Origin: a phage
Strand: one strand, 5' to 3'
Length of the DNA: 64,000 bases
Sequence record: PZ026127.1
Below the pieces are notes generated by a model, which had not been told where the DNA came from, did no database searches, and saw only the letters and a program-made list of their open reading frames with translations. Each line of letters opens with the position of its first letter. Within the stretch, counting starts at the first letter, position 1. A program made the translations under genes and the position numbers. Positions 2,764 to 46,373 of the stretch are shown here, one piece after another.

Positions 2764-3399
2764 ATGTCTAAAATTACTTATATCATCAAAGCTTCTGAAG
2801 ACGTCCTGAATGAAAAAACTGCTTCGATCTTAGTACATATCATCAAGCATAACTTCATCACTTCAGGCGAAGTCCGTGAAGCCCTGAGTGAGCAATTTAG
2901 TGCAGCAGTGGTTAACTCTAACATCGGTGTATTGATTAAGAAAGGATTCATCGAAAAATCTGGTGACGGTTTAGTGGCTACAGGTGAAGCAATGGACCTG
3001 GTTCAAAAAGCTGCCGACCTGTTCGCTTCTGAAAATGCTCCAGAGATGTTGGAAAAACGTAAAACGCGTAGTTCACGTGGTGTTACTCCTGAAATGGTAA
3101 CACTGGCTGATGAAGTTAAAGCTTTATTAGAAGACCGTATCGAGATTCGTGAAATTGCTGAAAACCGTAGCAACCTTGAAGTTCGATTCGCTAAACGTAC
3201 CAATGGTATTCGTCAAATTGAAGTCCGTCGTGATGGAATGATGCGTATCTTCGGTTATAATATGACTGATAAAGAAAAACAAGTGTTTACTTCCTTGAAT
3301 CTTGATGTTAAGATTAAGACTGGTGGTAAGAATACTTATATCGACTTCCAAAACGTATCATCTGAAGTTATCAAAACCGTAACCAACGCAATTATCTGA
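2764..3399 (+). CDS. motA: MotA middle-transcription activator
   Basis: 211 aa (T4 MotA 211 aa); N-terminus MSKITYIIKAS.DVLNEKTA and ...SNIGVLIKKG..EKSGDGL match remembered T4 MotA; own early promoter. Confidence 0.85.
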   Translation: MSKITYIIKASEDVLNEKTASILVHIIKHNFITSGEVREALSEQFSAAVVNSNIGVLIKKGFIEKSGDGLVATGEAMDLVQKAADLFASENAPEMLEKRKTRSSRGVTPEMVTLADEVKALLEDRIEIREIAENRSNLEVRFAKRTNGIRQIEVRRDGMMRIFGYNMTDKEKQVFTSLNLDVKIKTGGKNTYIDFQNVSSEVIKTVTNAII

Positions 3400-3413
3400 C
3401 TGAGGAAATTATT

Positions 3414-3743
3414 ATGAACAAGCTGAATATTGTTAATGAACTTCGTCGTTGTGCAGAACCTACTCAAGAAGGTTGGGATATTTGGTACCACGGTGCTTAC
3501 CTCGGCACTATTGTTAAGATTAAAGCAGGTAAATACTTAATCATCCGTGGTGGTTCTGAAGCTTCTATGGGTATTCGCAAAAACTTTATGGCAGCAATCA
3601 GCACCTTTGTTCCGGCGGCCTACGAAGTTTATAAAGCGGACTACAAAGAATACCAGGAATCACAGCCGGTTATTCGTTCAATTGGTGTTAATAAAGCTCA
3701 ACAGAAAACTTTATGGCAACGTGTTAAAGGATGGTTCAAATGA
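3414..3743 (+). CDS. hypothetical early protein
   Basis: 109-aa ORF with RBS GAGGAAA; motA-asiA accessory region. Confidence 0.5.
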   Translation: MNKLNIVNELRRCAEPTQEGWDIWYHGAYLGTIVKIKAGKYLIIRGGSEASMGIRKNFMAAISTFVPAAYEVYKADYKEYQESQPVIRSIGVNKAQQKTLWQRVKGWFK

Positions 3744-5434: not shown

Positions 5435-5710
5435 ATGACTAAAATTGAAATCGTTTCCGAAATTGCCACTATTGTTTCCATTTTGATTAAAACGGATTGT
5501 GAAGACATCATGCAACGTCGTGATGAGTTTATTGCCTTTTTGAATGAGTTAGGTATTCGTAATGAACATGGAAAGGAACTTAATGGTTTGTCTTATAACA
5601 AATTATTTAAGTCTTTAACTGAAGATGAGCGTGAAACTCTTATTGAGCAATTTAATGAAGGGTATGAAGATATACACCGTTATTTAATGATGTATACCTC
5701 CAATTTCTAA
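5435..5710 (+). CDS. asiA: AsiA anti-sigma70 factor
   Basis: 91 aa (T4 AsiA 90 aa); VSILIK...FIAFLNE.G...LIEQFNEGYE...RYL.MYT matches remembered AsiA. Confidence 0.85.
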   Translation: MTKIEIVSEIATIVSILIKTDCEDIMQRRDEFIAFLNELGIRNEHGKELNGLSYNKLFKSLTEDERETLIEQFNEGYEDIHRYLMMYTSNF

Positions 5711-6360
5711 CGTGTTCGACCTAATGTCCTCCCGGCTTGACCACACATAGACGAAAGTCTAGGAAATCCTAAATCCGGTTTGATATCATACCAGTACAAC
5801 GATATCGAGCCGGCGTAGACGTTATCCAAATTAAAAAACGGGCATGAAAACATATACGTGAATTGTGTTTTCTTCTTTGTAGGGAGAAACACTGATTCAG
5901 TACTTGATTCAAAATAGTTCCCGTTAACTCCCGCCATATATTCTACTGACGTTTTGTCAATTGGAAACCCTCCCGTGTTTTTTGCGTCTACCGTTTCCGG
6001 TAATTTACCCTCGTAAGCCACCATATCCACAAAATAATTCATGTTGGTTGGTCTAAAAGAATATATTGCTGTGAAGTCTGCGCCTGAAGAAGAATGCACT
6101 ATTCGGAGCTGCTCGATAGCCGCAATTTTAAATCTATTGTCCTGGTCTTGTCTAATCATTTCAGTATAAGAGGCATAAGTTGTCTCTTTGTAAAAGTTTA
6201 GAATATACTCGCCTTTATACCAAACCAATGCCATAAAGAACAATAATATTACGACTAGGACCCGGGAAAAAACAACTTTCCCGGAAGAAGTATCTTTAAA
6301 AATTCTATCAAGAAGTCCAAAAAGTAGGTCTGATAATGATATTCCTACTTTTGGTTCCAT
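5707..6360 (-). CDS. t: holin T
   Basis: 217 aa (T4 T 218 aa); LSDLLFGLLDRIFKD..GKV..SRV.VVILLFFMA.VWY and C-terminal SMCGQAGRTLGR match T4 holin; late promoter and RBS upstream. Confidence 0.9.
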   Translation of the reverse strand: MEPKVGISLSDLLFGLLDRIFKDTSSGKVVFSRVLVVILLFFMALVWYKGEYILNFYKETTYASYTEMIRQDQDNRFKIAAIEQLRIVHSSSGADFTAIYSFRPTNMNYFVDMVAYEGKLPETVDAKNTGGFPIDKTSVEYMAGVNGNYFESSTESVFLPTKKKTQFTYMFSCPFFNLDNVYAGSISLYWYDIKPDLGFPRLSSMCGQAGRTLGRTR

Positions 6361-35454: not shown

Positions 35455-35480
35455 ATGGGACTCTTCGGAGTCCCATTTTT
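35455..35480 (+). terminator. intrinsic terminator
   Basis: GGGACTC-TTCG-GAGTCCC followed by ATTTTTGTTT. Confidence 0.65.
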
Positions 35481-36913: not shown

Positions 36914-37126
36914 ATGTTTAAGAAATTGATTCAGAAATTATTAGGTACGGAAATGGTCGAAGTGACTTATCGTGTGACTGATTTATCTCCTGTGCATCCG
37001 CAAGATGAACCATATACTAAAACAATTAAAATGCTGAAATCTGATGGCGGATTATCTATTGAAGACCGTCTACCTGGTTATGGTCATTGGGCTGATGTCG
37101 AAATTATAAGTGTCAAAGATGTCTGA
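36914..37126 (+). CDS. hypothetical small protein
   Basis: 70 aa. Confidence 0.45.
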   Translation: MFKKLIQKLLGTEMVEVTYRVTDLSPVHPQDEPYTKTIKMLKSDGGLSIEDRLPGYGHWADVEIISVKDV

Positions 37127-37577
37127 GTTAGAAATAAGAAGCAATTTTCCATGGCCATCGTGTGCATTAAGTAACTTTGCTAAATGGCCTTTCGTTATGG
37201 ATGGTATCCAATTTGGTGGGCTCGAAGGATTCCTCCAAGGATGTAAGGTGAGAAATCATGAACAACAAAAACGTATATTTGGGATGTCCGGTCTGGCCGC
37301 ACAACAAACTGGAAGAGCTTATGCTAGAGCTGCGGACCGTGGGACGCTGTTCTGGCTTGGAATTCCCTTTTCAAGATACTCTACATCATGGAAAGAGTTG
37401 TATACAAATGCATATTTTGAAGCAGCGCTCCAAAACAAAGGATTCCGCGACGCATTACAAGCTACAAAGGGCAAAGTTTTAAAGCATTCGATGGCGAGCC
37501 ACCTTACAGAATGTGATACAATACTAACTGAAAAAGAGTTTATCGACATCCTAAACAAATTGAGAGATTTATTATGA
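37119..37577 (+). CDS. NADAR-family (YbiA-like) protein, putative ADP-ribose/N-glycoside hydrolase
   Basis: ALSNFAKWPFVMDGIQF.G.EGFLQ resembles the signature N-terminal motif of E. coli YbiA/NADAR domain (DFSNFAAWPIKVDG); track ORF starts at GTG 37110. Confidence 0.6.
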   Translation: MSELEIRSNFPWPSCALSNFAKWPFVMDGIQFGGLEGFLQGCKVRNHEQQKRIFGMSGLAAQQTGRAYARAADRGTLFWLGIPFSRYSTSWKELYTNAYFEAALQNKGFRDALQATKGKVLKHSMASHLTECDTILTEKEFIDILNKLRDLL

Positions 37578-38212
37578 AACCAGTTATCTTAACAGATATC
37601 GATGGAGTATGTTTAAGTTGGCAGTCCGGCTTGCCTTATTTCGCACAGAAATATAATTTGCCTTTAGAACATATTTTGAATATGATTCAGGACGAACGTT
37701 TCTTATCTCCTGGTGAGCTGTTTAATTGTGATAATGAATTAGGCGCTCGTTTAATCGAGAAGTACAATCAGTCAGATTTTATTCGTTATCTGTCTCCTTA
37801 CATGGACGCATTAAAACATATCAACAAGCTCAAAAAAGACTTCGATTTTGTAGCCGTGACTGCGCTAGGCGACTCAATTGATGCACTGCTGAATAGACAA
37901 TTCAATTTGAATGCTTTGTTCCCTGGCGCATTCAAGGAGATTCTGATGTGTGGTCATTCAGAATCAAAAGAAGACCTCTTCATAAGAGCTAAAAATACGT
38001 ACGGTAAACGTATTAAGTTTTATGTTGATGATTTGGCTCACCACTGTGATGCTGCATCTAATGTTCTCATGGATATCCAAGTTTATTGGTTAGCTCGTGG
38101 TGAACGTGACTTTAAACCTAATTTAGCCGTAAAGGTTAATTCATGGGACGATATCGCAGCAATCGAATCCCTTCGTAATAATGCCGCAGTTGAATGGATT
38201 GCTCGAGGTTAA
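37574..38212 (+). CDS. HAD-superfamily-like hydrolase (putative phosphatase/nucleotidase)
   Basis: N-terminal ILTDIDGV motif (HAD motif I DxDG); 212 aa; ATGA coupling with NADAR gene. Confidence 0.45.
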   Translation: MKPVILTDIDGVCLSWQSGLPYFAQKYNLPLEHILNMIQDERFLSPGELFNCDNELGARLIEKYNQSDFIRYLSPYMDALKHINKLKKDFDFVAVTALGDSIDALLNRQFNLNALFPGAFKEILMCGHSESKEDLFIRAKNTYGKRIKFYVDDLAHHCDAASNVLMDIQVYWLARGERDFKPNLAVKVNSWDDIAAIESLRNNAAVEWIARG

Positions 38213-38213
38213 T

Positions 38214-38492
38214 ATGTTTGTAGTTCATACAATTTCAGACTATGGTCCTACCACTACAATGGATTATGGTCATGTAAACCAGTTTATTCGTCATGTGAAT
38301 CATGATTACTCATTTGATGTAAATCCGGCTAAAGACCATCCTGTTTGGCGCGAATGCGTCGAACAGGGATTCATTTATGTCCACTTTATGTCCAAGTTCA
38401 AATCTGATGGGCGAATGAGATTTGTGTTCTCTTATCATAAGCGATTAGACTTGCTTTTGGCTGATGTGGCTTATAATAGAATCCATGACTAA
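38214..38492 (+). CDS. hypothetical protein
   Basis: about 92 aa from ATG; His-rich. Confidence 0.4.
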   Translation: MFVVHTISDYGPTTTMDYGHVNQFIRHVNHDYSFDVNPAKDHPVWRECVEQGFIYVHFMSKFKSDGRMRFVFSYHKRLDLLLADVAYNRIHD

Positions 38493-38502
38493 TGAGGTGA
38501 TT

Positions 38503-40026
38503 ATGATTTTAGATATTTTAAACGAAATTGCTGCTATTGATTCTACTAAAGCTAAAGAAGCCATTATTGCTCGTGAAAAGGACAATGAGCTTCTGAAACG
38601 TGTTTATCGTATGGCGTATACCCGTCGTCTGAACTACGGTATTAAAAAGTGGCCAGAACCTGGATTTACATCTCAATCCTTTGGTATGATTACTCTTGAA
38701 GACCTTCTTGATTTCGCTGAATTCACATTAGCCACACGTAAGATTACGGGTAATGCGGCTATTGAAGAACTGGCTCAAATCATTGCTGATGCTAAGGCCC
38801 CGGATGCCGAGGTATTACGTCGTGTAATGATGCGCGACCTTGAATGTGGTGCATCGATTTCTATTGCTAACAAGGTTTGGAAAGGTTTAATCCCTGAACA
38901 ACCGCAGATGTTGGCGAGTTCTTATGATGAAGCTTTGATTAAGAAAAATATTAAATGGCCAGCGTTTGCTCAATTAAAAGCTGATGGCGCTCGTTGTTTT
39001 GCTGAAGTTCGTAATGATGGTGTGACGTTCCTTACTCGTGGTGGTAATGAATACCAAGGGCTTCATCTTTTAGCTGCTGAATTAATGGTGATGACCGAAG
39101 AAGCTCGTCAACGTCATCCTAATGGTGTTATGATTGATGGTGAATTAGTTTACCATACTCCTAAAGTAGAACCTAAAGCATCTAATGATTTGTTTAGTAT
39201 GTTTGATGAGGAACTTCCTGAATTAAGTAAGGCTAAGGAATTCCAAACTGTCGCCGATCGTTCCACTTCAAACGGCTTGGCTAACAAGGCTCTTCAAGGA
39301 ACTATTACTCCGACCGAAGCCGCAGGTATGGTATTACAGGCATGGGATTATGTCCCATTGGATGTCGTATATTCCGAAGGTAAAATTAAAGGCGATAAGT
39401 ATGATGTACGCTTTACAGCCTTAGAACTTATGGTTGCCCATAATGTCGTATTGCATGGTACAACGCGTGTTGAAGCTATTGAAAACCAATGGGTTAACAA
39501 TTTGGCTGAAGCTAAAGCGGTTTATAAGAAATATATCGGTAAACGCTTGGAAGGTATTATCCTTAAGAACATGGACTCCTACTGGGAGAACCGCCGTTCT
39601 AAGAATCTTATCAAGTTCAAAGAAGTAATCGATATTGCTTTAGAAGTAGTAGGTTACTATGAACACTCGAAGGACCCCAATAAGATTGGCGGTATAGAGT
39701 TAGTATCACGTTGTCGTCGTATTACAACTGACTGTGGTTCTGGTTTTAAAGATACCACCCATAAGAAAGATAAATCTGGTAAAAAGGTATTGATTCCATT
39801 GGAAGATCGTCCTGATTTAGACCGTGAACTTCTTATGAAACAAGCCCGTGAAGGTAAGTTGATTGGGCGTATTGCCGACTGTGAATGTAATGGGTGGGTT
39901 CATTCTAAAGGACGCACTGATACTGTAAGTATTTTCCTTCCAACTATTAAAGGTTGGCGTTTCGATAAAACGGAAGCCGATTCATTTGAAGATGTATTTG
40001 GCGATTGGTCTCAAACTGGACTATAA
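38503..40026 (+). CDS. 30: ATP-dependent DNA ligase
   Basis: MILDILNEIA.I.STKAK start and ...FAQLKADGARCFAEVR (adenylation Lys motif KxDG), ECNGW match T4 DNA ligase; RBS GAGGTGA. Confidence 0.9.
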   Translation: MILDILNEIAAIDSTKAKEAIIAREKDNELLKRVYRMAYTRRLNYGIKKWPEPGFTSQSFGMITLEDLLDFAEFTLATRKITGNAAIEELAQIIADAKAPDAEVLRRVMMRDLECGASISIANKVWKGLIPEQPQMLASSYDEALIKKNIKWPAFAQLKADGARCFAEVRNDGVTFLTRGGNEYQGLHLLAAELMVMTEEARQRHPNGVMIDGELVYHTPKVEPKASNDLFSMFDEELPELSKAKEFQTVADRSTSNGLANKALQGTITPTEAAGMVLQAWDYVPLDVVYSEGKIKGDKYDVRFTALELMVAHNVVLHGTTRVEAIENQWVNNLAEAKAVYKKYIGKRLEGIILKNMDSYWENRRSKNLIKFKEVIDIALEVVGYYEHSKDPNKIGGIELVSRCRRITTDCGSGFKDTTHKKDKSGKKVLIPLEDRPDLDRELLMKQAREGKLIGRIADCECNGWVHSKGRTDTVSIFLPTIKGWRFDKTEADSFEDVFGDWSQTGL

Positions 40027-40260: not shown

Positions 40261-42156
40261 ATGTCCGAACAATTGAATGAGGTATTTGACGGCGCTATAG
40301 ATTTATCAGCTGTCAATTTAAACCCTAAACTTAAAGTACCGCAGATTTGGAATATAAAGGCTGAAGGTAATGAGAACCTTGTTGCACGCATGGTTTCATA
40401 TACTTCTGAAGGTGATACAATCCGCCAAGTTAAACCGGGTGACAAATACGTTCATATTATTTTAATGAGCCTATCATCTAAAGGGGCCCCGGCAGAACTC
40501 AAAGGTGGTTTAGGTAGTAACCCCATTTCCGCTATTCGTTCTATATTTGATACGGTTTATGAACAAGTTAAAAAGCTCCGTATGGATGCCGTTATGTTCC
40601 GTTTTCCTACTAAGAAAATGAAAGGTCAGGAAAAAGCTGTACAACGAGTTCTAGCCAAATTAATAGCTACTAGAGCAGGTGGGCAATTCAAGGTCCTTGA
40701 TGCCTTGTATCAATATACAGGCAAACATTCATATGTTTTTATCTATCGTAAAAATAAAAATATAGAATCAATAAACGGTATTCCTAATATTAATCCGGAA
40801 TTGTATACTAAAGTCGAATCTGAAGTCGGTGATGTGTATGTTTCAAAGAAAACAGGCGAAGATGTTACCAAATTAGAAGCTATAGCTAAGTCTATAGACG
40901 AAATAGAAAAATCACGTTCTGATAAAATGGTTATAACCAAGACTAAGGTTTCTAAACGGGCCGCTATAAATGCGTTATATTCTACCGCCGAGCCTACAGG
41001 ATTGAGTAAATTTTCGGCAGAGCACAAAAAAGCTTATGCAGATTATTCTGCTACTAGTTCCGTTCATTCTTCTGAAGATTCTAAAGAAAGCCAAATAGCT
41101 TTAGCCAGTAATAAAATATTAAAAGACGCCTCTAAAGAAATGGCAGAATATTTGGATTATATTTTTAACGGTGTTAATCCATCATTTGAAGTAGACGAGC
41201 GCAAACTTAAACTAATTGCTGATATAAAGTTTGCTTTAGAGGCATCAGATTCTTTAGATAAATCTAATAGTGTCATAGAGGCTTTAAAATCAGGTAAATC
41301 TCATGTAGACATTCTTAGACTAGTCGCTGCGGCCCTTTTAGATGATTCAGTTAAAGGTACTTGGGCTAGAGAATCTAAAATCAAGGAAGTAATAAAATCC
41401 TTAGTAGCAGTTTATACAAAATCTATCCAACCGTTGTTTAAGATATCTGATAATCCTAATTTATCCAAACCTCAAGAAGAGGCAGTCAAAAAGTATACTC
41501 GTGGCGGCTACAACCATATAAACAACTTTTTGCTAGGTAAAACAGATACCACCGATGAAATGATAAAAATGATTGGTGAGTTGGATTCTACATTTGAAAA
41601 TGGTACAAAACTTCCTAAAGGAACCATAGTGTATCGTTCTCAGATAATGCCTACCGAAATGGCTTTGAATTCTATAAAACATAAGGTGATGTATCTTCCT
41701 ATTTTTGCATCAACTTCATTGGCTCCTAATATTTTCGGTGAAATGGGTCATGCTCAATCCAACTTAGACCCTGAAGCTCTTTCTAGCGATATAGATAGTA
41801 ATCTTGAAGACACCATTAAAAGTGCGACCGGAAGTGCTAGAGATACCATTAAGCTAGGGCTAATTATTAAAGGTGCTGATAAAATTAAGGTTATTGTGCC
41901 CGGTGACTTGGCTAATTGGTCTACAGAAACCGAAGTAATTCTTCCTCGTGGGGTTATGCTTAAGATTAATAAAGTATACGGTGCTTCCAAGGGACCTATG
42001 GGTTCAATTGGTAAATATGTTTTAGTGGAATGTGAAGTTGTAGCTACCGAGCAAATCACAGAGGAAAATTCATATAGCACCGGATTCTCGTTTGGAAATT
42101 ATGATAGAATTATGTATGAAGATTCTATGGAAAAATTAGCAAATTTATTTAAATAG
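40261..42156 (+). CDS. Alt-like ADP-ribosyltransferase, paralog 1
   Basis: 631 aa; conserved Alt-type N-terminal module; C-terminal R-S-ExE ART signature (YRSQ, FASTSL, TETEVILPRG). Confidence 0.8.
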   Translation: MSEQLNEVFDGAIDLSAVNLNPKLKVPQIWNIKAEGNENLVARMVSYTSEGDTIRQVKPGDKYVHIILMSLSSKGAPAELKGGLGSNPISAIRSIFDTVYEQVKKLRMDAVMFRFPTKKMKGQEKAVQRVLAKLIATRAGGQFKVLDALYQYTGKHSYVFIYRKNKNIESINGIPNINPELYTKVESEVGDVYVSKKTGEDVTKLEAIAKSIDEIEKSRSDKMVITKTKVSKRAAINALYSTAEPTGLSKFSAEHKKAYADYSATSSVHSSEDSKESQIALASNKILKDASKEMAEYLDYIFNGVNPSFEVDERKLKLIADIKFALEASDSLDKSNSVIEALKSGKSHVDILRLVAAALLDDSVKGTWARESKIKEVIKSLVAVYTKSIQPLFKISDNPNLSKPQEEAVKKYTRGGYNHINNFLLGKTDTTDEMIKMIGELDSTFENGTKLPKGTIVYRSQIMPTEMALNSIKHKVMYLPIFASTSLAPNIFGEMGHAQSNLDPEALSSDIDSNLEDTIKSATGSARDTIKLGLIIKGADKIKVIVPGDLANWSTETEVILPRGVMLKINKVYGASKGPMGSIGKYVLVECEVVATEQITEENSYSTGFSFGNYDRIMYEDSMEKLANLFK

Positions 42157-42164
42157 GATAGATT

Positions 42165-44246
42165 ATGACCCAATTAAATGAAGTGTTCGAGTCCGAAGGT
42201 ACACTGCCTGTTGTGAACTTGAACCCAAAACTTAAAGTACCTCAGATTTGGAAGATTGGAGACGCGGAGTCTCAGTTAGTAGCACGTATGGTATCCTATG
42301 CTTCTGAAGGCGATGCTATTAAACAGGTTAAGATGGGTGATAAATATGCCCACGTTATCCTTATGAGCCTTTCAGCTAAAGGTTCGCCTGCCGAACTTAA
42401 AGGCGGCTTAGGCCCTACTCCTGTAGATGCGATTAATACTATTTTTGATGTAGTTTATGACCAAGTTAAAAAGCTTCGTATGGATGCCGTGATGTTCCGT
42501 TTTCCTACCAAGAAAATGAAAGGTCAAGGCCCTATCGTTCAACGTATTATCCAACGTTTGGTAGCACAGAAAACCGGTGGACGTTTTAAAGTGGTTCCGG
42601 CTATGTACCAATTTACCGGTAAACATACTTACATCCTGGTAGTCCGTAAACAAGCTGATATCGAAGATATCAAAGGTATGCCTGGAATTAATGCTGAATT
42701 GTATACTAAGGTAGATTCTGATGTCGGTGAAGTTTATATTTCCAAAAAAGAAGGTGTGCAGGTTACTAAAGAAACTGCTATTGCTGGCAGTATTGCTAAG
42801 GTTGAAGAACGTCGCACTGATAAAATGGTTATAACCAAGACTAAGATTTCTAGGCGCGCCATTGCAGCAAGCCAATCATTGGAATCTTATCGTAATGAAA
42901 GTGAATTGTTTAAGAAATATGAAGCTACTGCAGCGGATTTTAATAAACCGGCAACAGTTCCATTAATCCCTGAGGCTCAGGAAATGGTTACTAATAACAA
43001 TTCTCCTGCGGCTAAAAATAAGGTTGCTAATATAGTGGCTGAAGGCACTGCTGAAGAATTGCATTACGATTATAAAATGTTTCCTCTTCACGGTATAGGT
43101 GAAATCCAAGAGAAAATTAAAGAGAAAATTCTTACAGCAATAAAAAACGAACCTTTGACATCTGTTAAAGCTCTAGAAAAATATGCCTCTGCTATTAATA
43201 CCGTTTTCGAAGAATACAAAGGTGAATGGCTGGCTATCCATAACAGAACTCGTAAAGGCCAACCTGATGACCTTTGGAACGAATTGACAGAGGCCAAGTG
43301 GAAAGCAGCCAAGACTAAGTTCATTAAAAAACGTGTATATAGTTTTGCTGGTGTGGGTGGCGGTATTATGGTTGATATTACTATTGCTCGTGAGGGCTCT
43401 AAATATACCCCATCACAAAAGCGCGGAATCAGAGAATATTGTGGTTCAGGATATACAGACATAAATAATCTTCTTTTAGGACGTTATAATCCTCAGAACT
43501 ATGAGGTTATGAGCGAAAAAGATATCGAATCTGCAGTTAATAATTTGGATTCTGCTTTTGAAAACGGCGACCGTATACCAGAAGGCATCACAGTTTATCG
43601 CGCACAGAGTATGACTGCTCCTATATACGAAGCACTAGTTAAAAATAAAGTGTTCTATTTCAGAAATTTTGTATCTACTTCTTTAACTCCTATCATTTTC
43701 GGACGTTTTGGTGTTACCCACGCAGGTATTGGTCTTTTAGAACCTGAAGTTCGCAATGAATTGACAGTCGATAAAAATGAAGAAGGAATAACTATTAACC
43801 CTAATGAAATAAGAGCGTATAAAGAAAACCCTGATTACGTTAAAGTTCAAATAGGATGGGTAATTGATGGAGCCCATAAAGTTAATGTCGTATATCCAGG
43901 AAATCTCGGAATAGCAACTGAAGCCGAAGTTATTCTGCCGCGTGGATTAATGGTCAAAGTTAATAAAATAACAGATGCTTCTAATAATGATGGAACAACA
44001 TCTAGTAATACAAAACTCATCCAAGCTGAAGTTATGACAACAGATGAGCTTCAAGAATCTGTGGTATATGATGGTGACGTACTAATGGAAACCGGCGAGC
44101 TGGTCGTGTATCAAGATGATTTCGATACTTCCGAAAGCCCTGTATCTTTTGATTCATTTGTTAAATCTACACGGTTTGATGTACTGCCTCTTTTGGCTTC
44201 ATGCATAGACCTCTATGACATCCCAGAAAAATTCATCCAAGGGTAA
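42165..44246 (+). CDS. alt: Alt-like ADP-ribosyltransferase, paralog 2
   Basis: 693 aa (T4 Alt 682 aa); same N-terminal module; YRAQ, FVSTSL, TEAEVILPRG. Confidence 0.8.
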   Translation: MTQLNEVFESEGTLPVVNLNPKLKVPQIWKIGDAESQLVARMVSYASEGDAIKQVKMGDKYAHVILMSLSAKGSPAELKGGLGPTPVDAINTIFDVVYDQVKKLRMDAVMFRFPTKKMKGQGPIVQRIIQRLVAQKTGGRFKVVPAMYQFTGKHTYILVVRKQADIEDIKGMPGINAELYTKVDSDVGEVYISKKEGVQVTKETAIAGSIAKVEERRTDKMVITKTKISRRAIAASQSLESYRNESELFKKYEATAADFNKPATVPLIPEAQEMVTNNNSPAAKNKVANIVAEGTAEELHYDYKMFPLHGIGEIQEKIKEKILTAIKNEPLTSVKALEKYASAINTVFEEYKGEWLAIHNRTRKGQPDDLWNELTEAKWKAAKTKFIKKRVYSFAGVGGGIMVDITIAREGSKYTPSQKRGIREYCGSGYTDINNLLLGRYNPQNYEVMSEKDIESAVNNLDSAFENGDRIPEGITVYRAQSMTAPIYEALVKNKVFYFRNFVSTSLTPIIFGRFGVTHAGIGLLEPEVRNELTVDKNEEGITINPNEIRAYKENPDYVKVQIGWVIDGAHKVNVVYPGNLGIATEAEVILPRGLMVKVNKITDASNNDGTTSSNTKLIQAEVMTTDELQESVVYDGDVLMETGELVVYQDDFDTSESPVSFDSFVKSTRFDVLPLLASCIDLYDIPEKFIQG

Positions 44247-44249
44247 ATA

Positions 44250-46373
44250 ATGGAAAATTTAAACGAGGTTTTTGATAGTGATTCCGCTAAAAACTATCCA
44301 GTAACAAATCTTAAACCGGGTTCCGGTATTCCACAGATTTTCTCTATCCAAGCACCAGGTAACGATAACCTGGTTGCTCGCATGGTATCTTATGCGTCTG
44401 AAGGCGACGCTATTAAGATGGTTAAGGCGGGCGATAAGTACGTCCATGTTATCTTAATGAGTTTATCTGCTAAAGGCGCTCCGGCAGAACTCAAGGGTGG
44501 GTTGGGTACCGATCCACTCGGTACACTGAACACCATTTTCGATACCATATACGAACAAATAAACAAACTTAAAATGGACGCGGTTTTATTCCGTTTCCCT
44601 ACTAAGAAAATGAAAGGTAAAGGCCCTACCGTTCAGCGCGTATTAGCTCGTTTGGCTATGGCCCGTACCGGTGGTAAGTTTAAAGTTGTTGACGACATGT
44701 TCCAATTCAGCGGAAAACATACCTACGTTCTTTTAGTACGTCGTGGTGCTAATATTGAAGATATCAAGGGTATGCCTGAAATTAATGCCGATCTTTATAC
44801 TAAAGTTGAGTCTAAAGTTGGCGAAGTGTATGTTTCTAAGAAAACCGGCCAGGCCGTAAGTAAGGTCGAAGCAGTAGCGGCATCTATTGCACAAGTTGAA
44901 GAGAAACGTACTGATAAGGCTGTCATTACCCGTACTAAGATTTCCCGTCGTATGGCAGCAGCCGCACAGTATTCTACTGCCGAGCCTGAAACTTTGTCCC
45001 CTAAAGAATTGCAGGTTTATAACGAGTTTGAAGCTTCTGTACCGGTTCACACGGCTGAAGGCCCTGAGAATGAAGGTATTGAACAGATTAGTCAGAACTT
45101 TAAAAAAGGTGCTATTACTAAAATGCGCCAGGCTTCTCAGTTTAAATCTAAGAGCGAGGACCTTGCCAACTTTAGATACACTATTGCTCTCACACACGCT
45201 TTAATGACTGATAGTAAATTTAAACTAAATTATGCTAATAGAGATAAACAAGGGTTTGAAATTTACTCTAATAATATGGCATTTTTTAATACAGAAGTCG
45301 ATAGACTTTTAAGTGGCCTTTCGCAAATCAATACAACCAATAGTCTGGATATTATTAAGAAAATTGTTAATAACCTGAGTACCCGTTTTAAGGGTTCCCC
45401 TTCAGAGAAAGCATCTAGAATTGCTTTCGCTATGGAAGCCGTTTATAAACTGGTTAACGATTCTATTAGTGATGCATATGCTTATTCAGGCGAGCTCATT
45501 AAACCTAAGGACCTAACCAAAGACGAAAGCAATGCTATTATTGAATATTGCGCGGCTGAATATGCTCCTATGAACTTATTCCTTTTAGGTAAACCTGAAT
45601 CCGAAAACAATACAACGGCTATTAAATTGATTAAGGATTTAGACTCGGCATTTACTAAGGGTATTAAACTTCCTAAGGGTACTATTTTGTATCGTGGTCA
45701 GGATTTGCCATACAAAATTCTGCGCCATAATATCGATAACAAAACATTTTACTTTAAGAACTTTGTGTCAGCCTCACTAAAACCTAACATCTTTGGTGAA
45801 TTTGGTAAAAATTATATGGCCCTCGACAACCAAGCCGTTTTTGTTGGCGGTGAAGGTTCTTTATCCTCCGCTGATGAGTTGTTTAAATTGGCTAGTGGTA
45901 GTTCGTCTGATGTAGGTGAAGTCGATGACGAAGAGGTAGAATGGGAAGAAGACGAGTTTGGTAATCCAATTGCACCTGAAGGTCCTGCAGATAGAATTGC
46001 TGAAATTGGTATGGTTATTCGAGGTGCTGAAGCAGTTAAAGTTATCGCTCCTGGTGACCTTACAGAATATGCCGAAGAAGCAGAAATTATCCTTCCGCGT
46101 GGATTATTGTTGAAGGTTGATAAAGTAGCGGCTTTTGCCATGAATGATAGAGTATCTCACAAATACCTTATGGAAGCTACCGTAACACCTCCTTCAGAGC
46201 TCAGCGAATCTGTTTACGATGGTGACCATTTGATGGAAACTGGTGAAGTTCGCCTGATGGATGGGTTCAGTCAATTCTTGGTTAATGAATCTGTTTCTGA
46301 AAGCAACGAGGCTATGGAAATCCTTGCAGCGTCTTTGGATATCTCTTCTTTATCAAATAAATTCAAAATGTAG
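44250..46373 (+). CDS. Alt-like ADP-ribosyltransferase, paralog 3
   Basis: 707 aa; same N-terminal module; YRGQ, FVSASL, EEAEIILPRG. Confidence 0.8.
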   Translation: MENLNEVFDSDSAKNYPVTNLKPGSGIPQIFSIQAPGNDNLVARMVSYASEGDAIKMVKAGDKYVHVILMSLSAKGAPAELKGGLGTDPLGTLNTIFDTIYEQINKLKMDAVLFRFPTKKMKGKGPTVQRVLARLAMARTGGKFKVVDDMFQFSGKHTYVLLVRRGANIEDIKGMPEINADLYTKVESKVGEVYVSKKTGQAVSKVEAVAASIAQVEEKRTDKAVITRTKISRRMAAAAQYSTAEPETLSPKELQVYNEFEASVPVHTAEGPENEGIEQISQNFKKGAITKMRQASQFKSKSEDLANFRYTIALTHALMTDSKFKLNYANRDKQGFEIYSNNMAFFNTEVDRLLSGLSQINTTNSLDIIKKIVNNLSTRFKGSPSEKASRIAFAMEAVYKLVNDSISDAYAYSGELIKPKDLTKDESNAIIEYCAAEYAPMNLFLLGKPESENNTTAIKLIKDLDSAFTKGIKLPKGTILYRGQDLPYKILRHNIDNKTFYFKNFVSASLKPNIFGEFGKNYMALDNQAVFVGGEGSLSSADELFKLASGSSSDVGEVDDEEVEWEEDEFGNPIAPEGPADRIAEIGMVIRGAEAVKVIAPGDLTEYAEEAEIILPRGLLLKVDKVAAFAMNDRVSHKYLMEATVTPPSELSESVYDGDHLMETGEVRLMDGFSQFLVNESVSESNEAMEILAASLDISSLSNKFKM

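Follow-up and report, generated by a model that had tools for sequence, protein, structure and literature searches.

A predicted NADAR-type anti-DarT enzyme and an overlapping HAD-superfamily phosphatase gene in a Dhakavirus-type T-even phage

Results

The 64,000-nucleotide (nt) stretch of phage DNA analyzed here (sequence record PZ026127.1; hereafter, the window) carries on its + strand two overlapping open reading frames (ORFs) encoding a predicted counter-defense enzyme and a phosphatase. ORF1 (37119-37577, +) begins with ATG and encodes a NADAR-superfamily protein of 152 amino acids (aa), a predicted DNA ADP-ribosylglycohydrolase assigned as the ortholog of T4 gene 30.3 (adfN), whereas ORF2 (37574-38212, +), assigned as gene 30.2, codes for a 212-aa phosphatase of the HAD superfamily that carries a helical C1 cap. 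The stop codon of ORF1 (TGA, 37575-37577) overlaps the start codon of ORF2 (ATG, 37574-37576), producing an ATGA junction (37574-37577, +) that is read directly in the sequence; the same 4-nt overlap occurs in T4. An initial annotation, prepared from the nucleotide letters and their translations, had described both ORFs, the first with ALSNFAKWPFVMDGIQF (residues 16-32), and both were found exactly as claimed. Neither is a chance reading frame, because ORF1 matched Pfam PF08010 (Phage_30_3) with an E-value (E) of 3.6e-64 and ORF2 matched PHROG 420 with an E of 1.5e-70.

The relationship of ORF1 to NADAR enzymes was traced through its family, its fold, and its catalytic residues. In an alignment of 65 homologs, 20 members matched the Pfam NADAR family PF08719 (best E, 1.5e-7). 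The sole sequence match of ORF1 in the PDB was E. coli YbiA (2b3w), over FSNFAAWPIKVDG with a common SNFAxWP motif, bearing out the likeness to the N-terminal signature of the NADAR/YbiA family that had been pointed out in the initial annotation. As direct PDB searches with the protein and with the family profile gave borderline matches to YbiA (E, 1.2 and 0.039, respectively), fold comparison and hhalign were used. The family profile was aligned by hhalign to YbiA across 96 columns (probability, 86.9%; E, 4e-6), with E36 and K43 of ORF1 paired with E48 and K55 of YbiA. The AlphaFold2 model built on the alignment (pLDDT, 95; pTM, 0.90) had a YbiA-like alpha+beta fold, comprising a helical core with small beta-hairpins at its flanks. 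In a Foldseek search of the PDB with this model, the first three ranks were occupied by the three solved NADAR structures, YbiA (2b3w; E, 1.5e-4; TM-score, 0.69), Phytophthora nicotianae NADAR (8bau), and the DarG1-type NADAR of Geobacter lovleyi (8bat), and all other matches had E-values above 3.

The catalytic glutamate E36 (codon GAA, 37224-37226, +) was invariant among the 65 homologs and is equivalent to T4 AdfN E36, YbiA E48, and PnNADAR E43; the catalytic lysine K43 (codon AAG, 37245-37247, +), equivalent to T4 AdfN K43 and YbiA K55, was kept in at least 90% of them. The two residues follow the SNF motif with the E-x6-K spacing that is also found in YbiA. H123 (codon CAT, 37485-37487, +), again invariant, replaces the glutamate of the YbiA family and stands opposite YbiA E125, one column past the end of the hhalign match. 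Such a replacement by histidine in the last strand, at the position of the YbiA-family glutamate or the BC4488-family aspartate, characterizes the gp30.3 clade of phage NADARs (PMC11543638, PMC11125620). YbiA, a riboflavin-intermediate N-glycosidase, is thus the best structural match of ORF1 but differs from it in its sequence (18% identity), in the glutamate at the H123 position, and in its physiological substrate. Taken together, the profiles, fold, catalytic residues, and orthology to T4 gp30.3 support the assignment of ORF1 to the NADAR superfamily that the initial annotation had proposed.

ORF1 and T4 gp30.3 are equal in length and shared 86% identity over 152/152 aa, gap-free and collinear to the final residue, and none of the 22 substitutions fell on known functional residues. 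E36, K43, and H123 are common to both proteins, as is the C-terminal helix (residues 138-152, 37530-37574, +), which is intact in ORF1 and was modeled as helical over residues 138-151 by AlphaFold2. Both phages also have genes 30.4 and 30.2 as its neighbors, with overlaps of 8 nt and 4 nt in each case; they differ in genus, T4 being a Tequatrovirus. The window region shares 99.7% identity with Shigella phage PSD9 and 99.5% with IME281 (Tevenvirinae, genus Dhakavirus), and, on sequence similarity, its source is a Dhakavirus-type T-even phage and ORF1 is the Dhakavirus ortholog of gene 30.3 (adfN).

The function of the T4 ortholog is well documented. The gene family was described by de Souza and Aravind in 2012, as cited in PMC11543638; NADARs have been reported to undo DarT1-catalyzed guanine ADP-ribosylation (Schuller et al. 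2023, PMC11543638), and T4 gp30.3 removes guanine-ADP-ribose in vitro (Toxins 2024, PMC11125620). Gene 30.3 was renamed adfN, for anti-DarT factor NADAR, in a study in which its deletion made T4 and T2 sensitive to DarTG1, ectopic AdfN rescued RB69, whose own allele is inactivated by the loss of 15 residues at the C-terminus, E36A and K43A mutants of T4 AdfN were impaired, and purified AdfN stripped ADP-ribose from DNA (Johannesman et al. 2025, PMC11825919). In a transposon screen of T4, insertions in 30.3 were lost specifically under DarTG1 (bioRxiv 10.1101/2025.11.20.689424). These studies characterize T4 AdfN as a guanine-ADP-ribose DNA glycohydrolase, both required and sufficient for DarTG1 resistance (Schuller 2023; Toxins 2024; Johannesman 2025). 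Reversing DNA ADP-ribosylation of the DarT type, which the initial annotation had suggested as one role for ORF1, is accordingly a known finding, already published and experimentally shown for the T4 protein.

ORF2, whose N-terminus reads MKPVILTDIDGV, was 74% identical to T4 gp30.2 over 194 residues but has no counterpart of the C-terminal tail of about 85 residues in the T4 protein. All four HAD motifs (DxDx[TV], Ser/Thr, Lys, and the acidic DD/GDxxxD) are present. In an alignment of 52 homologs, the nucleophile D8 and the general acid/base D10 of motif I (D8-I-D10-G-V, 37595-37609, +), K132 of motif III (37967-37969, +), and the Mg2+-binding D152-D153 of motif IV (38027-38032, +) were invariant, and T96 was conserved in at least 90% of the sequences. 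The AlphaFold2 model (pLDDT, 95) displayed a Rossmannoid HAD core with a helical C1 cap (approximately residues 16-86), in keeping with the HAD motif that had been recognized initially. The second aspartate of motif I marks phosphatases rather than dehalogenases, and capped HAD enzymes with both motif I aspartates are small-molecule phosphatases. ORF2 is a HAD-superfamily phosphatase and the ortholog of gene 30.2.

The substrate of ORF2 could not be read from its fold, because the ranking among HAD subfamilies was flat. Its weak sequence matches were all NT5C-type deoxyribonucleotidases, and the NT5C-type 5'(3')-deoxyribonucleotidases (2jao, 2i7d, 3bwv) are, along with T4 gp30.2, its closest known counterparts. 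The match to the NT5C family PF06941 (13.4 bits; E, 0.074) lay below the Pfam cutoff of 24.8 bits, so ORF2 is not filed as a member, and direct PDB searches with the protein and the family profile reached the cdN structure 2jao at borderline significance (E, 0.25 and 0.13, respectively). In the NT5C alignment, the invariant W16 of ORF2 falls on the aromatic residue (Phe) following motif I, and an SGL tripeptide occurs in both. By analogy with these deoxyribonucleotidases, a nucleoside monophosphate is most likely the substrate of gp30.2, a best guess that we hold loosely; no functional study of gp30.2 was found in our literature searches. The C-terminal tail of gp30.2 (38150-38212 in the window; 5475-5730 in locus L001) is very variable, with the 212-aa window protein ending in a short helix, the T4 protein reaching 278 aa, and homologs ranging from 196 to 347 aa.

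The initial annotation had described the two genes as translationally coupled. The ATGA overlap itself stands, and T4 and each of the 13 loci with a T-even-type AdfN (85-100% identical to that of the window) keep it, but a functional coupling of the HAD and NADAR genes is not supported. The six junctions that follow one another between 30.6 and gene 30 are all similarly tight, the extremes being 8 nt of overlap and a gap of 10 nt, and the HAD gene is more closely associated with the ligase gene. Gene neighborhoods were counted in IMG/VR across 72 loci encoding a gp30.2 relative and the 80 best NADAR loci. According to an HMM search, 34 of the 72 loci had a gp30.3-type NADAR gene just upstream of 30.2 and in the same orientation (BLASTP gave 32), and none was found within 5 kb of 30.2 in the remaining 38, at least nine of which have a NADAR gene 55-60 kb away from 30.2. 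From the NADAR side, 30.2 was near in 19 of the best 80 loci and absent from 61, many of which are jumbo-phage or gut-phage contigs. The most conserved neighbor of 30.2 was DNA ligase, which adjoined it in 68/72 loci, including three distant loci in which the ligase gene lay upstream rather than downstream; an alt homolog was present in 52/72, some of them without a nearby NADAR gene. Given 34/72 on the HAD side and 19/80 on the NADAR side, the adjacency was rejected as a general module. The NADAR-HAD pairing is lineage-specific synteny, which provides only a slight prior for joint function, and the ATGA coupling of adfN and 30.2 is weak evidence of a common function. Among 50,697 cultured-phage records, the two genes occurred in 1,511 and 1,438, with near-identical host-genus profiles, as fits two near-core genes that T4-like phages pass on by vertical descent. 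In these T4-like genomes, the distant NADAR copies (nine loci, each with a partner locus) were approximately 40% identical to that of the window, which suggests that the gene was relocated or replaced within the Straboviridae.

The genes of the window and those of the T4 block 30.8-30.7-30.6-30.5-30.4-30.3-30.2-30.1-30(ligase)-alt are collinear. Upstream of adfN, the gene 30.4 ortholog (36914-37126, +; PHROG 2042; E, 3.6e-34) shares the 8 nt at its 3' end with the start of adfN. Downstream of ORF2 are the gene 30.1 ortholog with DUF3045 (38214-38492, +; Pfam PF11243; E, 3.9e-16), gene 30 for an ATP-dependent DNA ligase (38503-40026, +; Pfam PF01068; E, 3e-22), and three tandem genes for Alt-like ADP-ribosyltransferases (40261-46373, +). 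The last-mentioned genes (40261-42156, 42165-44246, and 44250-46373) encode proteins of 631, 693, and 707 aa, each with a PF03496 match, and the first starts 2049 bases past the end of ORF2, in agreement with the distance of about 2 kb given initially. T4, in contrast, has a single alt gene with the duplication remnants alt.-1 and alt.-2. A strong terminator-like hairpin (35455-35476; a 9-bp GC-rich stem followed by a T-run) is situated directly upstream of gene 30.8 and probably marks the beginning of the 30.8-to-ligase transcription unit. In a scan of the region from 34.5 to 40.4 kb, promoter-like sites were no more common than expected by chance, and there was no convincing terminator between adfN and 30.2 and no signal separating them.

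Discussion

We consider it highly probable that the locus as a whole is best explained by an AdfN counter-defense enzyme encoded by ORF1, a gene 30.2 HAD phosphatase encoded by ORF2, and an overlap between them that reflects gene packing and synteny. In this scenario, AdfN would be a free-standing N-glycosidase of the NADAR fold that is produced early in infection. When a host DarTG1 system frees DarT1 and the guanines of the phage DNA become ADP-ribosylated, AdfN would cut the ribosyl-guanine bond, releasing ADP-ribose and restoring the base so that replication could go on. The enzyme would thereby act as an "orphan antitoxin" in counter-defense, an activity known from the T4 ortholog and extended to the window protein through the 86% gap-free identity and the retained functional residues. 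Since E36, K43, H123, and the whole C-terminal helix are retained, AdfN of the window is predicted to be active as a guanine-ADP-ribose DNA glycohydrolase protecting the phage from DarTG1. The gp30.2 protein would be a Mg2+-dependent HAD phosphatase whose helical C1 cap implies a small-molecule substrate. Both genes would be part of a single, densely packed early transcription unit (30.8 to 30 to alt), and the overlap between them would reflect this packing and inherited synteny rather than a demonstrated joint pathway.

The NADAR that serves as antitoxin in DarTG1 systems, DarG1 (G. lovleyi 8bat, E. coli C7 NADAR; PMC11543638), has a fold in common with ORF1 (Foldseek probability, 0.92), together with the catalytic Glu-Lys pair and, by analogy for ORF1, probably the hydrolysis of guanine-ADP-ribose. 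Unlike DarG1, the phage protein is devoid of a basic N-terminal extension and carries histidine where DarG1 has aspartate, and its gene is not located beside a DarT toxin gene. Several points weigh against the interpretation of ORF1 as an AdfN enzyme of this kind. The window protein alone fell below significance against both Pfam NADAR (PF08719) and NCBIfam, so its link to NADAR is transitive or structural. T4 AdfN, in turn, is not an antitoxin in uninfected cells, to which it gives no protection from DarT1 (PMC11125620), and its rescue of non-T-even phages is weak (PMC11825919, PMC11125620), which leaves the mechanism incomplete and calls for a further phage factor. AdfN-T4 is fully active only in T-even infections and performs poorly in T5 or Bas25 infections, and DNA hypermodification has been excluded as the cause of this dependence (PMC11825919), so that a phage protein is suspected.

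Whether gp30.2 might be that protein bears on the possibility that the two gene products form a functional pair, with the HAD enzyme serving as the T-even factor for full AdfN activity or disposing of the ADP-ribose set free by AdfN, once a pyrophosphatase has cleaved it. Such a pair would accord with the 4-nt overlap kept in T4 and in 13/13 T-even-type AdfN loci, the constant upstream, same-strand position of NADAR wherever it lies near 30.2 (34 loci), the similar numbers of cultured-phage records for each gene (about 1,440-1,510) with their near-identical host profiles, and the T-even dependence of AdfN-T4 described above. Nevertheless, we regard it as quite unlikely, given that 38/72 30.2 loci have no NADAR within 5 kb and 61/80 NADAR loci no 30.2, that every junction of the cluster is equally tight, and that guanine de-ADP-ribosylation leaves behind no phosphomonoester that a HAD enzyme could hydrolyze. 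The narrower proposal that gp30.2 is the T-even-encoded factor that AdfN-T4 needs for full function, one candidate among many T-even-specific genes, is very improbable because of the same neighborhood statistics and because the text of the T4 transposon screen named only 30.3 under DarTG1 (bioRxiv 10.1101/2025.11.20.689424). If it were true, NADAR and HAD would constitute a two-component anti-DarTG1 module. The adjacency of 30.2 to the ligase gene could instead point to an end-healing phosphatase that acts with the ligase, for example by removing 3'-phosphates to give ligatable nicks, with no ADP-ribose role. The strong synteny of T4-like phages can account for this adjacency without a functional link. 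Moreover, HAD caps usually enclose small substrates, and members acting on macromolecules, such as T4 Pnkp, are capless; the helical C1 cap at approximately residues 16-86 of gp30.2 thus makes an end-healing role unlikely.

For ORF1, the competing explanations concern the substrate. Alt modifies arginine residues of proteins, which argues against a NADAR that moderates the phage's own ADP-ribosylation by removing ADP-ribose (or ADP-ribose-linked RNA) that the three Alt-like enzymes, or ModA/ModB, attach to host proteins. This tuning role had been raised in the initial annotation, and it could draw on the position of adfN about 2 kb upstream of three Alt paralogs and on the co-expression of phage NADARs with ADP-ribosyltransferases as early genes (Iyer et al., PMC9503650), as well as on the wide conservation of the gene block, with alt also found where no NADAR is nearby. 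However, all NADARs tested, T4 gp30.3 included, act on guanine-ADP-ribose and not on thymidine-ADP-ribose (PMC11125620), sensitivity to DarTG1 is the sole phenotype reported for mutants in which adfN is deleted or carries an insertion, and adfN is non-essential on E. coli K-12 (PMC11825919; HIDEN-SEQ preprint). In addition, many T4-like genomes carry their NADAR gene approximately 55-60 kb from alt. The tuning role is therefore unsupported and, in our estimation, very unlikely. A metabolic function for ORF1, that of a YbiA-type N-glycosidase detoxifying intermediates of the riboflavin pathway, would be consistent with YbiA being its closest solved structure and with its weak, non-significant NCBIfam match to a riboflavin-intermediate N-glycosidase model (E, 0.093). 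This explanation is extremely unlikely, as the glutamate that defines YbiA is an invariant histidine in the ORF1 family and DNA de-ADP-ribosylation has been demonstrated for the T4 ortholog (PMC11825919).

A reading made from sequence thus correctly picked out a counter-defense enzyme in the window, even though its gene family (2012), biochemistry (2023-2024), and role against DarTG1 (2025) had already been published. By analogy with T4, Dhakavirus genomes can be labeled as bearing an intact adfN and as predicted to be DarTG1-resistant.

Within adfN, a further ORF in the +1 frame (37258-37482, +) was identified as the counterpart of T4 ORF 30.3' (Pfam DUF2883; E, 4e-27). Its product was 62% identical to the T4 version, compared with 86% for the main adfN frame, and 55 of the 88 nucleotide differences fell on third positions of the main frame. 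In distant NADAR genes, the +1 frame often stays open for 40-100 codons. As the embedded frame showed no sign of selection, it was rejected as a real gene.

Current annotation of the two genes is sparse. Wherever an annotation was given among the 60 phage records listed, adfN and 30.2 alike were named "hypothetical protein" or something similarly uninformative. In IME281, the nearest RefSeq genome (NC_055740; 99.5% identical), the adfN/30.3 ORF (3228-3674 of locus L154) is unannotated, and the labels are shifted by one gene, with the HAD gene named "gp30.3" and the DUF3045 gene named "gp30.2".
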